Assembly (NCBI GenBank): GCA_054600435.1 | Contig: BAAIJX010000027.1 | Coordinates: 1 to 64,000, forward strand | Reading direction: 5' to 3' | From: Neophaeotheca triangularis | Taxonomy: Eukaryota | DNA: 64,000 nucleotides | Shown: piece after piece, positions 36,742 through 48,415 of the stretch | Numbering within the stretch: the stretch's first letter is position 1 | Layout: every line of letters starts with the position of its first letter | Translations under genes and position numbers: made by a program | Notes under the pieces: model-generated | The model's database searches: none | What the model was told of the DNA's origin: nothing | What the model saw: the letters and a program-made list of their open reading frames with translations, nothing else

Positions 36742-37530
36742 ATGCTCCCCACACCCCCCACCCCCTCCCTCCCCCCAAACGTCTACGAACCCTCCGAAGA
36801 CTCCTACCTCCTCCTCGACACCCTCTCGTCGGCAACGGAAAAGCGCTACCTGCAAGCCCACTTCCCGGCCAACACGCCAACGCCACTGATAGTCGAAATC
36901 GGCACCGGCTCGGGAATCGTGCTCGCCTTTCTCAACACGCACGCGGGGGAAATCTTCGGCCAAGACCGGCACGTCTTGACGTTGGGGGTGGAAGTTAGCG
37001 GGGTGGCGTGTGAGACTGGGAAGCGGACGGTTTTGGGGGCTGCTTCATCTTTGGAGGAGGAGGAGGAGGGGGAAGCGGGTAGGGGTAGGGGTAGGAATCG
37101 CAGCTTCCTTGGTATCGCGAACGCCGATTTGACGACCGTGGTCAAGTCGCACTCCGTGGACGTGTTGGTTTTCAACCCGCCGTATGTGCCTACGGAGGAG
37201 TTGCCGGCGCTGCATCAGGAGCGACGTCAGCAGCAGCACTTGTCGGACTCGCAAGCGGCTTTTGAGCATGACTCCTGGTTGCTTTCGCTTACTTATGCGG
37301 GCGGCGCGGATGGCATGGAAGTTACCAACCGGTTGTTGGCGGATGTGCCGAGGGTGTTGAGTGAGAGGGGCGTGGCTTATGTGCTGCTGTGTGCGCAGAA
37401 TAAACCAAGAGAAGTGGCTAGGGCTGTGGGGGAATGGGAGGGGGGTTGGGTGGCGGAGATTGTTGGGTCCAGTGGGAAGAAAGCTGGGTGGGAGAAGTTG
37501 TGTGTTTTGCGGATAGCGAGGACGACGTGA
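36742..37530 (+). CDS. MTQ2: eRF1 glutamine methyltransferase catalytic subunit (HemK2/N6AMT1-like)
   Basis: MLPTP start, VYEPSEDSYLLLD, EIGTGSG, FNPPYVPT, YAGGADG, AGWEKL. Confidence 0.95.
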   Translation: MLPTPPTPSLPPNVYEPSEDSYLLLDTLSSATEKRYLQAHFPANTPTPLIVEIGTGSGIVLAFLNTHAGEIFGQDRHVLTLGVEVSGVACETGKRTVLGAASSLEEEEEGEAGRGRGRNRSFLGIANADLTTVVKSHSVDVLVFNPPYVPTEELPALHQERRQQQHLSDSQAAFEHDSWLLSLTYAGGADGMEVTNRLLADVPRVLSERGVAYVLLCAQNKPREVARAVGEWEGGWVAEIVGSSGKKAGWEKLCVLRIARTT

Positions 37531-37967
37531 GCGGCGCGAGTGGGGGGTGCTGGGGGTTGCTTGGTTGGGATGGCGGGCAGGCGCAACTAGATGGGATTGA
37601 GGTTCGACCATGTTGTGTTTGGCACGATACCTCCTACGGCCGCAATAGTCGTAATCCGCTCTCGTCATCACAGGGCCTCCTTCAAGCTCGCGGCACTTCA
37701 CACTGCTACCAAGTCCAGCTGTCACCGAAAGCTGCAAGAGCATTGCAAGTCGCCGGGAAACAATCGGCGCAGATGTCCAGCCCACAAACCACCTTTCCCA
37801 ACGAGCATTATCGGCAGCTCAAACCCCTCAACACATCAACAGTACTTTCTAGGTCACACTTCCTTGTGAAAGGATAATGCCCCTGCGAGCTCCGCACCAG
37901 CAAGCACTCCAAAATCAGAACCGGACAAACCAGCGGGATAGGAGCCTCCAGCAGTCCAGCATTAGAT

Positions 37968-38489
37968 GAGAGGAATGCAAATCGGAACAGCCCGATGCAG
38001 CGGTAGTAGGCCTCCCAATCGCTAGCGGGCAGCCGGGCGTGTAGCTACTGCTGGGGATACATGACAGCAAAACACGGAACAGGCTTGGCGTAAAGCCCGG
38101 CTGGCAGTTCCGCGTTTCGCTGTCACCACGACCTTTCATTGGGGGTTTTCGGCCGGCCGGGAAACTCGAGTCGGGCGGCAGGAAAAGGACAGAATTCTCA
38201 GGTTTCCGAGTGAATGTCCCGGTCTCTCCAGACTTCCCCGGGTCGGCGTTGGCTGCGCAGCCCTTGCCATTGGCAAAGTCCGTCCGACTTGATGAGCTGC
38301 ACTCCCACACGACGAAAGGTGCACACGAAAGGTGCACCGAGAGAGAGGGACAGGAATCGCCGGAAACCAGGTAGAACCGTCACGCTCGCGTCGCCCGCGA
38401 AGCCAAAAGGGAACGAGCCCGACTATCGCGACGCGGCGGGCGAAAGTCTGCCGCGTCAGAAGAGCCGACAGTAGAGTTGCGGTTTTCTC
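37968..38489 (+). ncRNA. Unidentified multibranched structured RNA element (independent ncRNA or UTR structure)
   Basis: Nested helices found by eye, including 38030-38/38095-103, 38110-24/38467-82, 38169-76/38417-24, 38201-08/38361-68 and a 12-bp C-GAAA-G hairpin at 38430-38457; G-U pairs favour the + strand. Confidence 0.55.
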
Positions 38490-38529
38490 CAAGCAGACTC
38501 AGAAAAACCATCCATCTCCTGTGTCTGCC

Positions 38530-40591
38530 TCAAATCTCCCCCCTATAATCCTCCAACCCCGTATCATAGCGAAAATCACTCAACCCTTCATTCCAATGCG
38601 CCGTATCCTCCCCATCCCCGCCACCACCATCAGCAAAACCGCCAGTATCCCCCTTTCCCCCCTGCAGCTCCCCCGACTCCGCCCTCGCGATCCCAAACCC
38701 CCCAGCCCCCAACCGCCTCAAATTCTCAGAAGTCCGCAGACTCGGCTTCCGCACCTGCTCCCCCGGCAGCAACGGCAAAAGACAAAAATCCCACTCCTCA
38801 TCATCCCTCGCGACCCGATCGACAACAGCACCGGCCCTCCTAGCGACAGCCTCGGGCACAAAACTGCCCCGATGTTCCGCCAAGTGCGCGAGATACTTGT
38901 CCGCGCCGAGACAATTGGCGGGCTTCGCTTCCCCGGCGTAAGCGCACAACAGGCATTGGAAGACATATTTGCCGTCGCGCATGTACTTTTGCGGCACGTG
39001 CGACTTGGCCAGCAGCGGCCAGCGGAATTTGAGCCCGAGCTTGTCCACGGCGTACACTTTTTCCCACACTACCGATGTGTCGATGCGGCCGGCGAAGCAG
39101 CATTTGCTGCTGCTGCAGGCGAGGAAGTGCGTGTCGGACGAGGACCAGGGTTCGTTGAATTCTTTGCGTTTGTGCAGGGCGGAGCGGTCGTGGTTTTGTA
39201 GTTTGATGGCGGATTTGCAGAAGTTGAGGTAATGGTTGTCGCTCGTGGGGTGGGGGAGGGGATTGGAGGGTTTTTTGGTTTGGCTGGAGGGGTTGGAGGT
39301 TGGGGCGTTGGAGTGGTTGTTGGAGGAGGCCGAGGGGTTTTGGGAGGCGAGGTTTGTGGAGGATGGGGCTTGCGAGTGTAGGGTTGAGGAGGAGGCGTGG
39401 CCGCGGACTATGGACGGGGCGTTGGCTAGACTGCTCATTTGCGTTGCTGGGGAGAGGGGACCGTTTGAGGAATGGAGGGTTGTGCCTCCGGGGGAGGTTG
39501 GGCGGCTGTTTTCCTGTTCTGAGAGGTGGTTTTCGGATTCTTTGCTTTCGGCCAGTCCGCCGTGGTCGGGAGCGAAGTTGAAATAGTTGTTGGATCTGTT
39601 GGCGGGTGGTTGTTGGGGTCTTCCTGTGGAGGTTGGTGAGACTTCTCTGCTATCGTCAGGCCGGAACGGCCGCAGCGGCATGCTCGTGGGTGAGACGGGT
39701 TGCGGGCCTTGTTCCGGCGGATCTACTGCTTGTGCTGTCGCGTTGCTACTTCCATTGCTCGATGTGTTGTCCTTACTCGTATTCTTCCGATGTTTGAACA
39801 TGCTCAATAGCGAGCCCGTCCTCTTGGCTCGCTGCTGGTTTTGCTCAGCCCCCGACATGGCATCCTCCTCCCCAGACGTAGCAGTGGATTGAGAAGCGCC
39901 GAAGTCCCGCGTCCACGTCTTGTGCTTCTTGGTGGACATCTTCCTCGGCGGCCCCACCTCCTTCTTCCCCTCTTGCTGCTCCTGCAGTCTAGGGACCTGC
40001 TCAGTCGACCTAGGAGCATCCGCAGGCGCCGCCGCATTCGCCGACTCGGGTGGCACAGTCGTCATAACGGGCAGCGTGGGCATATTATTGACAGGGCCGC
40101 TCGTCAACAACCTCTGCCTCAACTCACACAGCGTGCTAATCGTCCTATCCCTCCCCAAATCCGCCGCATCCACCAGATTTCCAAACTCCTTGATGTCATC
40201 CCCATCGGCGGCGACGTTTAGTTTCTGCAACAGATTCTCGCGCAATTGTATGGCGATTTGCTGCAGCGCGATTACGGCAATATGGTCGCCGTCTTCAAAG
40301 GCTTTTTCGAAACGTTGCAGGCCGCGTTGCTTCTCGCGCACTATGTCGTCCGGGGCTTGGTCTATGGACTCTTCGAGCAGGCGAGGTGGTGGAGGAGCGC
40401 GGTTGTCGGCGCGGCGTTTTTTGAGCTGGTCAATTGTGGCGCCGGCTTCGCGGTAGACGTTGATGACACCTGCGACGCAGGCCTGGGAGGTGGGGGAGAG
40501 GGCTTGTTAGTTTGTGGCTTTTGTGAGATGGCACAAGGTACTAGGCATGACTACTCACGACTATGCCCACGGCTTCACCGACGACGCTCAT
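38530..40591 (-). CDS. Hypothetical protein: N-terminal helical domain, disordered middle, C-terminal Cys/His-rich domain; intron 40558-40483
   Basis: Exon 1 MSVVGEAVGIV splices in frame to the 603-aa ORF; C-terminal FC..CSSSKC..LAKSHV..CLLC..HLAEH. Confidence 0.85.
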
Positions 40592-41769
40592 GTTTGGCTG
40601 GCGTTCACGCTGAGTCTATGGTACTTGACTTTGAGTCTCGGCGCGAGCGAGAGATGGAGATGGGCAGGATGGGAAGAGAGATTATTGTGCGGTGCGATCA
40701 ACTAGGTTGGCTAGTACGAAGCACATGTGGACCTTGATTTGCTTTTGCTTCCTACCTGGCCAACAACACGCTTGCCGGCTGATGAGTAGTCGAGGAGAGA
40801 CAGAGTAGGTAGAGTACTCGGGTAGGTAGCAGTATCTACTTAGGTTAGTTAGTGCTATAGAATAGAGAGGGGGTGCGGGTGACGGGGTGACGGCCCGCAG
40901 CAATGACGGTGGATGGACAGGTGGGAGTAGTCGGGGTGTCAGGTGCAGGTGCAGGTGGTTGGCGGGCGGTGGAGAGTGGAGGTTCATCTCAGCAGGCGGC
41001 GGGGGATGCTGTTAGATTGCTCGTCGTGAATCGTGCGTGATGCATGGAGGGGCAAGTACTATATACCTACTGTAGGTACTATATAGATATAAAGGATACC
41101 TCAGGTACAGTAGAGATACAGTACATATCCAGATCAGTCATCGACCTGTTGGTAGGTAATAACTTAGAAATCACTACCACGTGCGTAATAATGGGGGGAG
41201 TCGATCCCTTCCAAGGTTCTTTTCTATGTAAGTTACCTTATTAAATACAGGTCAGGTATGCCGCCCCACACTCCCTGTTCGTTCCTCGCTTCCAATTTCC
41301 ATTTCATTTGCATCAACGTTACTAGTAACGTTATGTAGTTATACCTAAGGACAACCTAGATGAATTTGATCAATGCCATCAGTTTGTGTATACGACATAA
41401 AGAGGTAAAATCTATATTTGTCCATGACTTGCTTACTTCTAAATATATTATTATCATCATTATTATTATTATACTTAACAGTGTGGGGAGTGAGGATGCC
41501 CACACTTTTTCCCCCTTCCAGGCATTGCAGTAGTGCCACCGCCGCTGTGGGCCTCCTCTCTCTGATACTCCCTCGACATCACCTCGCAGCAGATCTACAC
41601 GCTCCAGCAAGCCTCAACAATTATAGCGAGTAAGTGCGAATGGCCTCTCATTAGCCAGGGAAAGCACGACAGAGTCAAGTACAAGACCACAAACCTCCCT
41701 CCCGCGCCATTTTCCCATCCATCCCATTACCCAACACCATCAACTCTCTCCCCCCCGATCTCACCCAAA

Positions 41770-46386: not shown

Positions 46387-47954
46387 GTTGGAAGTAAAAT
46401 ATAGGGTTTTGAGACGTGTTGAATGCGCAAGACAATTCATGTCTCTGGAGAAATAGATCGAAGCGTTTTGAGAGGACTGGCGAATCGAATGGACGAGGAA
46501 GCTGACATGTGCTATTGCCATCATGCCTGGGAAGGGAGATCATTTTATACCTAGGTATCGCATCCCGACGGCGAGTGATTACGGCCGAATCAACACTGCC
46601 TTTTGAAGTCTGGAAACGCTCAACTAGACGATTGTTAGAATTTCAAGACGTGCCGATATCTTCGCGCAGCATAAAGCATCACTGCCGTAATATCTACAAC
46701 CCCAAGAGCGATAAGTAATGCTGTCGGGGTGGACGCATACACACAGCACTTGTTCGGTCTCATACTAGAACGTCTATTTGTGCCGCATGCCTTACCTTAT
46801 TGATGTCACAACTCCATCGAGCTGCGAGAATGCGCGAGAGGCAACCCTTCTTAGACTAGGTAAAGTGTAAGAGTGTAGATTTGAAGGCGGAAAGGGGGAA
46901 AACGGTGGAACAGACCATGCTCCCTCCTGGGCGAGCTTAATAGGGGCGTACCTAGGTGAATTGACCGAAGATTTCAGACGCAATGGAATCGAAGTCTACG
47001 AATGCTCGAGTACATCTCGAGAAAGGTGTAAGGGGATGAAGCAATCGATTGCCTCGATACCAGCGTCGAGGCAATGGTACCTAGGTAAGGTCCCTTCCCA
47101 TTGCGCAGCGCTCTAAGACCAAAACAATTCGGAGACGTCCGCATTTCAGTCATAATCACCAACGCCATCAGAACTGGCCACTCCTGCTAACAAGGGATGT
47201 AATAATAATGAACAATACCCTAAGGTATGCCAAAGACGACAACACGCCCGCCATCCGAATCCATCGCTCCTCCCGACAATGGCGCCGGTAAATTAGAAGT
47301 TAAGACATGCAATGCATCTAGGCGAGAAACCTGCTGGTCTCCCGCACATGTTGCATCTACATACCCAAGGAATCAGCCGTGGCTCGCGCCGAGCCAACCT
47401 TGATATGCATCGAAGAAGTCAGATAGGTGAAAGACCGGCTAGCCGAGCGGGTAGTCTTGGTCTTACCACGGGTAAAAGCACACATCGCCGGGGGATGGAT
47501 GGCGCGATGATGAGGATGATGATGATGATGATGATGATGCTAGGGCGCAGCGTGCAGCGTGCAGCACTGCAGACGGGACCTTGGACGTCTAGAAAACGCC
47601 ATGGACATAGGGAGGTAGGTGACTTAAGCCTGTACTGTACCTATGTAGGTAGCCCGCGGTACAGTAGGCTGTAGGCCGTAGGTCTGCCATCCATACTAGT
47701 AGGTACTATCTTATTATGCTCTCGGCATACGTTCAACCTAGTGCCGCCGACAGCGTGGGCGCAAAGAATTCGCTGCTAATAAACTAAACCTAATCCGCCA
47801 CGCCCTAACTTGTCTAGGGTTTTCTAGACGACTTCTCGCTTCGCTACAGTACTACTGCTTCATGTGGTGAGGTGGTGGTGTGGACTGGCTGGTATTATTT
47901 GTGTTTGAACACCCCCAACTCGGCTCCACCGCCGCCTTCTGCATCTCATCTCAT

Positions 47955-48007
47955 CTCTCATAGTCTCTCATAGTCTCTCATAGTCTCTCATAGTCTCTCA
48001 TAGTCTC
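47955..48007. repeat. Tandem 10-mer (CTCTCATAGT)x5
   Basis: Five perfect copies are visible. Confidence 0.95.
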
Positions 48008-48415
48008 ATGTAGGCTCGTATGGACACGGGTAATTATTGTCCGCCCGGCTAAGGTATACGTCTCCCATACGTCAGTCCATGTCCACTTACAGTTACGACT
48101 GCCAACTGGTGACATTCCCTGCCCATACATGGTCTACGTGTAGGCGAGAACGACACGCCCGCACGGCTTGCCCACATATCAAGAAGCGAAACGTTCGCTT
48201 GATGAGGCTCCAAGTCCGGGGAAAAAGGTTGGTCCCCGTTGATTATCATTTCACCACACACCATCCCGTGTCAGCCTCCATTTTCTTCACATTATTACTC
48301 TTGTCCCCTCCCACATTCCCTCGACACGCTTCGCCCAAAGAAAGGCGAGCGCATAGAACCAGCAAACCACACCCCTCTCACGACGCGAACGCGACCTCCA
48401 TCATCCATCACCCCA

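Follow-up and report, generated by a model that had tools for sequence, protein, structure and literature searches.

An island of inverted repeats of about 480 nt (38053-38528) lies between the 3' ends of two conserved convergent genes, and we tentatively propose that the minus-strand gene carries it in a long 3' UTR. The position of the island, its local folding excess, the absence of a match to a known RNA family and the absence of a coding signal were observed directly. Coordinates refer to the window, the whole stretch of 64,000 nt that was analysed, which is nuclear DNA of a filamentous-type ascomycete.

Position between two convergent genes

An earlier note on this DNA had described a compact multibranched RNA of about 520 nt at 37968-38528 (here called the block), between MTQ2 and a convergent gene. 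Its placement was borne out, and the block is structure-rich and non-coding. The features referred to below are as follows.

36742-37530, plus strand: coding ORF of MTQ2 (eRF1 glutamine methyltransferase), 262 aa; the upstream neighbour, named by its homologues
37531-38052: spacer without excess structure, holding the first 85 nt of the block (37968-38052) and the lowest-GC stretch (37800-37919)
38053-38134, both strands: hairpin module 1, an inverted repeat with 19-20-nt arms (38061-80 / 38107-26)
38159-38170: CR-I-like motif GGGAAACTCGAG
38201-38368, both strands: hairpin module 2, a long arm of 168 nt whose tip is branched
38312-38337: tandem duplication of the 13-mer ACGAAAGGTGCAC, inside module 2
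38430-38457: hairpin module 3, with a GAAA loop on the plus strand and a 12-bp stem (p 1.0)
38458-38528, both strands: module 4 (z -2.5 on each), including the hairpin 38493-38528
38530-40341, minus strand: convergent neighbour, 3' part of the gene, a 603-aa ORF conserved in Dothideomycete fungi, function unassigned

The MTQ2 ORF has 2627 homologues at E<=1e-10, several of those from Dothideomycetes being named MTQ2, and its top non-self matches are 56-57% identical and chiefly from Dothideomycetes. For the convergent neighbour 12 homologues were found, and a Pfam search of its ORF returned no family. Six aligned homologues show conservation up to the very end of its C-terminus, and the stop codon at 38530-32 is therefore taken as genuine. 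A public protein identical to this neighbour, whose NCBI species label belongs to the order Neophaeothecales, is 661 aa long, while the open frame read here starts at an internal GTG and yields 603 aa; the 58 residues that precede it must derive from farther upstream on the minus strand (about 40341-40600), probably across an intron.

The 3' ends of the two genes face each other across a spacer of about 1 kb. In Friedmanniomyces simplex, the orthologues of MTQ2 and of the convergent gene carry adjacent locus tags (B0A55_03532 and 03531), and the two genes appear to be conserved neighbours across Dothideomycete orders. The pair is a ready synteny anchor for comparison of the spacer.

No coding signal was detected in the block. 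Pfam searches with four ORFs in or beside it returned no family, and none of the 17 candidates obtained for a 118-aa minus-strand ORF lying over it reached E<=0.001. A single match of a 140-aa ORF, to a tandem-repeat protein (E 1.7e-4), was judged spurious.

Folding of the island

The 561 nt of the block fold far better than dinucleotide shuffles (n=100 per strand). On the plus strand the MFE was -247.6 kcal/mol against -209.3 +/- 8.0 for the shuffles (z -4.81), on the minus strand z was -4.39, and on neither strand was any of the 100 shuffles as good. The 522-nt stretch 37968-38489 gave a z of -5.37 with a separate shuffle set (mean -200.5 kcal/mol) and had the lowest GC-regressed MFE of all 365 overlapping windows of the 64 kb, with a residual of -42.8 kcal/mol compared with -34.3 for the next window. 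For comparison, z ranged from -0.91 to +2.34 in nine evenly spaced non-overlapping windows and from -0.77 to -3.5 in six windows chosen as the next-best ranked. At the 100-nt scale, strong folds were enriched only mildly: windows below z -2 numbered 2/24 (plus) and 3/24 (minus) in the region and 83/3172 (plus) and 81/3172 (minus) in the rest of the 64 kb. When the 100-nt windows of the 64 kb were ranked by folding, 38041-38580 held five of the best 25 on the minus strand and none of the best 25 on the plus strand. The runner-up among the 522-nt windows, 47503-48024 (shuffle z -3.5), is probably intergenic, and an Rfam search of 46500-48100 around it gave nothing at E<=1.

The folding excess is local, is present on both strands and is carried by the four hairpin modules. 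The plus-strand flanks of the block had z values of +1.4 and -0.2, and the pieces of the upstream spacer gave +1.4 (plus) and +1.7 (minus) for 37600-37967 and +0.09 and +0.63 for 37968-38052. Together with the linkers 38135-38200 and 38369-38429, the first 85 nt of the block (37968-38052) ranged from -1.2 to +0.6. The island with its four local inverted repeats is G/C-balanced, with a GC skew of about 0 compared with -0.2 to -0.6 in the flanks; the lowest GC content (0.44-0.50) is found beyond it, at 37800-37919.

In module 1, the inverted repeat is 89% complementary over 19 nt, with z values of -4.1 (plus) and -5.3 (minus). On the minus strand it forms 20 contiguous pairs (p 0.99), the two A-C mismatches of the plus strand being G-U pairs there. 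The base helices of module 2 have probabilities of 0.95-1.0 on both strands, and the module as a whole gave z values of -4.4 (plus) and -4.2 (minus) and energies of -72.9 (plus) versus -79.3 (minus). Inside it, the tandem 13-mer folds into a GTGCAC / GTGCAC hairpin with a CGAAAG loop (ensemble p about 1). Module 3 is stronger on the plus strand, with z -7.0 versus -3.6 and an energy of -23.7 versus -15.0 kcal/mol. The helices 38493-98 / 38523-28 of module 4 have probabilities of 0.98 (plus) and 0.90 (minus), and on the minus strand this hairpin (38528-38493) begins one base past the stop codon of the convergent gene.

All the strings from which the multibranched fold had been assembled are present in place. 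This holds for the letters of the closing stem (GAGAGGA 37968-74 and TTTTCTC 38483-89), for CAGCCGGGC (38030-38) and GCCCGGCTG (38095-103), for the pairs AGTCGGGC / GCCCGACT, GGTTTCCG / CGGAAACC and GGGTCGG / CCGACTT, for GTGCAC / GTGCAC and the 12-bp GAAA hairpin 38430-57, for the tandem 13-mer at 38312-37 (two copies, 100% identical) and for GGGAAACTCG at 38159. The 12-mer common to the block and 50143-54 is a real match at chance level, as had been suspected: a 1-kb query had 11 exact 12-mers and three 13-mers in common with the window (E 0.78-3.1 for each).

The fold itself did not hold up. Five of its 11 helix segments had probabilities of at least 0.95, and five had 0.04 or less, namely the 9-bp stem 38030/38095, both halves of the 14-bp stem, AGTCGGGC / GCCCGACT and GGGTCGG / CCGACTT. 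The closing stem reached at most 0.46, and in wider context 37970-73 favours pairing with 37945-48 (p 0.83), which leaves the boundary at 37968 unsupported. With all helices enforced, the energy was -204.6 kcal/mol compared with -235.0 for the free fold; the multibranched model is thus 30 kcal/mol above the MFE and near the shuffle mean. A very strong folding score, together with long-range stems picked by hand, can come from a few local inverted repeats.

A functional plus-strand RNA had further been suggested from a G-U bias and from GNRA loops. Counted by strand in three framings, the G-U pairs were 21 vs 13, 20 vs 26 and 15 vs 16 (p 0.23, 0.46 and 1.0), so the bias is not significant. Both GAAA hairpins are present, and the one at 38318-38 follows necessarily from the tandem 13-mer, because the repeated unit contains the palindrome GTGCAC. 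The more stable strand changes with the stretch that is folded, being the plus strand for 37968-38489 (-235.0 vs -221.7 kcal/mol, a gap of 13 kcal/mol) and the minus strand for 37900-38560 (-283.2 vs -264.7 kcal/mol). By module, 1 and 2 fold better on the minus strand and 3 on the plus strand.

Transcription and origin of the island

As to transcription of the island, its strand and any function, we infer the following. The RNA of the island would belong to the 3' ends of the neighbours and would mostly come from a long 3' UTR on the minus-strand gene. Inside this UTR would lie the first hairpin, one base after the stop codon of that gene, and the minus-strand transcript would run on to the first low-GC stretch, at about 37920-37800. 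Low-GC stretches are usual around fungal poly(A) sites; the island itself has none. The hairpins would be ordinary structure of a UTR or termination zone, and they might stabilise the 3' end, bind proteins or hinder convergent read-through. Folding on both strands and an insignificant G-U split fit inverted repeats at the DNA level or UTR structure, and not a strand-selected ribozyme. On the other hand, a 3' UTR of at least 570 nt is long for a fungus, and this counts against the 3' UTR reading. So does the greater stability of the plus strand in 37968-38489, along with the preference of module 3 for that strand. The z of about -5 for the 522 nt also uses long-range pairs that a cluster of hairpins does not need, which counts against it as well.

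The nearest precedents are the conserved structures in fungal 3' UTRs, which are much smaller and backed by covariation (PMC8216456, PMC5640933). Those of Pezizomycotina lie in the 3' UTRs of genes for thioredoxin, a RING-finger protein and a thioesterase (Gao, Jones and Rivas 2021, PMC8216456, in the part available). Like the island, they are structured, stand just downstream of a conserved fungal coding sequence and have no known function. Unlike it, they measure 85-170 nt and show covariation in hundreds of genomes, according to the same sections of PMC8216456, while the island is about 480 nt long with four modules, is represented by a single sequence and follows another host gene. The available parts of PMC8216456 and PMC5640933 do not mention MTQ2.

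Relatives of the island and traces of its RNA were sought in environmental sequences. In a marine metatranscriptome run kept as contigs, 7% of the sampled words were present, and a single contig of 162 nt covers 37500-37613 only, with one difference in 114 nt; it spans the end of MTQ2 and 83 nt past its stop codon. The library holds Neophaeotheca triangularis or a near relative at low depth. A metagenome scan with MTQ2 confirmed six loci out of 586 pattern matches, of which one was the only fungal-type relative (51% identity), with 622 nt downstream. By eye, no look-alike of the block was seen in those 622 nt, Rfam searches of four of the six loci gave no match, and no homologue of the convergent gene was found in the six (best E 2.6). 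Among prokaryote genome contigs, the 12 loci obtained were all archaeal MAGs, and two words of 20-22 nt from the block had no match among viral contigs.

Rather less probable is that the island is a relic at the DNA level with no RNA function, left by small foldback or MITE-like insertions, or by local inverted and tandem duplications, and tolerated between the 3' ends. It is separate inverted repeats that carry the excess, their wobble-compatible mismatches are found on both strands without bias, and random transitions in inverted repeats of DNA would produce such a mixed strand pattern. The perfect tandem 13-mer shows recent slippage, and self-complementary words are enriched about twofold, with 19 7-mers compared with 9.7 expected and seven perfect 8-bp complements compared with 2.7 +/- 1.9 (9 of 300 shuffles reach seven). 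The block also lacks a known family, a promoter signal and a terminator signal, as such a relic would. Its separate imperfect inverted repeats with arms of 10-28 nt, its folding on both strands and its place in a gene-free zone resemble foldback or MITE-like DNA. However, no second copy of any module occurs elsewhere in the 64-kb window, the longest common word being 13 nt. Inspection of module 2 by eye did not reveal the signature of terminal repeats with a target duplication, and no target-site duplication was recognisable.

That the MTQ2 spacer holds a stand-alone gene for a structured non-coding RNA of about 0.5 kb, on the plus strand, of an undescribed class and specific to this Dothideomycete lineage, seems unlikely. 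This reading draws on the strongest folding signal in the window, on the plus-strand advantage in 37968-38489 in both energy and G-U count (21 vs 13), on the two GAAA loops of that strand, on a spacer of about 1 kb although both neighbours end there, and on the lack of an Rfam match. Against it, the boundaries and the closing stem are unsupported, shuffled sequence folds about as well as the proposed model does, the arguments for the plus strand lack significance and one of the GAAA hairpins is a duplication artefact. No promoter-type or Pol III terminator signal was detected; the plus strand has two T4 runs, one of them internal (38146).

Published screens of fungal genomes also weigh against a stand-alone RNA. 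In the sections available of one large report (PMC8216456), a search through over 63,000 intergenic windows and over 62,000 UTRs yielded small structures only, some of them in Pezizomycotina 3' UTRs; the average lengths were 48-343 nt and 17 regions were novel. Novel conserved structures are rare in such screens (17 in more than 125,000 regions, all shorter than 350 nt), and large structured RNAs beyond the classical set are very rare in fungi. A genuine structured RNA of 0.5 kb would therefore be notable, if true, and a paralogue of the RNase P or MRP type even more so.

Known RNA families and the RNase P and MRP comparison

That the block is unidentified, as the earlier note had it, agrees with the Rfam searches. 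With Rfam 15 at gathering score, the whole 64 kb gave no matches. Three nested searches at E<=10, covering 37500-38900 (1401 nt), 37960-38495 (536 nt) and 38105-38495 (391 nt), found no RNase P, MRP, SRP or ribozyme model. RF00009 (RNase P) was absent both at gathering score in the 64 kb and at E<=10 in the nested searches, and RF00030 (RNase MRP) was absent in the same four. The echoes of eiav_FSE, sR7, sR3, Xist_exon1 and UPD-PK2 (E 4.9-9.1) were taken as chance. The sole echo at module 3, the terminator-type hairpin of rliI (E 0.41, 13.2 bits), covers the hairpin alone and was likewise taken as chance.

The block could not be assigned to the C/D or H/ACA snoRNAs, telomerase RNA or tRNA-derived elements. 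In 37900-38800 the snoRNA box RTGATGA was on neither strand and CTGA was not on the plus strand, the telomere template (CCCTAA / TTAGGG) was not found in 37531-38529, and a tRNA search of the window gave 0. GGTTCGA, which corresponds to the start (seven bases) of a Pol III B-box-like motif, occurs at 37611-37617, about 350 nt upstream of the block; this is probably chance, with no accompanying A box or tRNA fold.

The partial resemblance to RNase P RNA that had been pointed out does not survive model-based or consensus-based tests, failing on RF00009, P4, CR-IV, P3 and P8/P9. The CR-I-like motif at 38159, GGGAAACTC, fits only the first eight positions of what we take to be the CR-I consensus, and by eye two later conserved G positions are unmatched. 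Two registers of a candidate P4 were considered. In the first, ACAGTA is followed by GAGTT, able by eye to pair with AACTC, which gives 5 bp with the upper half of P4 missing and an ensemble probability of 0. The second pairs 38161-68 with 38480-86; here CR-V lacks its AC...A part and the pairing overlaps the closing stem. The octamer AG....AT, presumably the CR-IV motif, was not seen by eye between the hairpin 38430-57 and 38472. The strings AGAATT (38194-99) and TAGAAC (38372-77) flank the long arm, by eye like CR-II and CR-III around P12, and are short purine strings. As for P3, there is no stable hairpin in 38125-58 that could form its helix-loop-helix (38135-38200 has a z of -1.2). P8/P9 are not on the 5' side, where the gap between the stem and the AGAA run is only 14 nt, and the only small hairpin near the P-like core is on the 3' side, at about 38384-38404. 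The helices that define this core have an ensemble probability of 0.

Nuclear RNase P RNA (RF00009) is similar to the block in a size near that of its large fungal examples, in a GGGAAA-type motif followed by a stem, in purine runs of the AGAA type on either side of a long arm and in 5' and 3' ends that can pair. It differs in that the block has no acceptable P4, CR-IV, CR-V, P3 or P8/P9 and no covariance-model match. According to the available part of PMC13184271, RNase P has a CR-IV of eight nucleotides and, several nucleotides 3' of CR-I, the P7 stem, and RNase MRP has a 3-bp P5 beside CR-I and a GARAR pentaloop in P8. The 8-bp stem AGTCGGGC directly abuts the CR-I-like motif and is neither this P5 nor the distant P7. 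The fungal searches reported in the sections available of PMC2996960 recovered 19 of 21 known P RNAs and predicted one in no more than 32 of the 49 genomes that lacked an annotated P RNA gene, so that P RNAs are missed in some genomes.

With RNase MRP RNA (RF00030) of the Pezizomycotina type, which has a very long P10, the block shares a length of about 500 nt and one arm of 168 nt; one helix of these RNAs exceeds 200 nt in the part available of PMC1796607. The GAAAG in two loops of the block (38442-46 and 38327-31) recalls the GARAR loop of P8. These loops are outside the P8 position, and neither hairpin follows the CR-I-like motif. The block also lacks the P4 consensus and the CR-IV motif given in the available text of PMC1796607, besides having no model match. 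In that text, the strongly conserved 5' strand of P4, gaaAGuCCCC, pairs with the 3' strand acnnnanGGGGCUnannnu, and CR-IV (AnAGUnA) sits 0-3 nt before the 3' strand of P2. No P4 pair within two mismatches and in the correct order was found in the region. The 5' motif has two-mismatch matches only, at 38212-21 and 38442-51 (plus) and 38141-50 (minus), and the nearest matches of the 3' motif, 37586-604 (plus) and 39026-44 (minus), lie upstream of it, which is the wrong order. CR-IV has no exact match on the plus strand in 37900-38800, ACAGTAG at 38468-74 lacking the final A.

Given also that RF00009 and RF00030 are absent even at E<=10 and that the prior for such a single-copy gene is about 0.2% per 64-kb window by our own estimate, we consider it very improbable that the block is a highly divergent nuclear RNase P or MRP RNA or a paralogue of one. 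The boldest form of the idea, in which the block would be a divergent third relative of these ribozymes, its P4 shortened, is no more probable.

On the minus strand, 38529-38540, which comprises the last codons and the stop codon of the convergent gene, is predicted to pair with 38159-38170, the complement of the CR-I-like motif (p 0.95, 12 bp, 3 G-U). About 360 nt of the structured block would lie inside this pairing. By our own estimate, this helix is within chance, at about 0.01 for that exact 12-mer but 0.2-0.4 when free choice of site is allowed, and no weight is placed on it.
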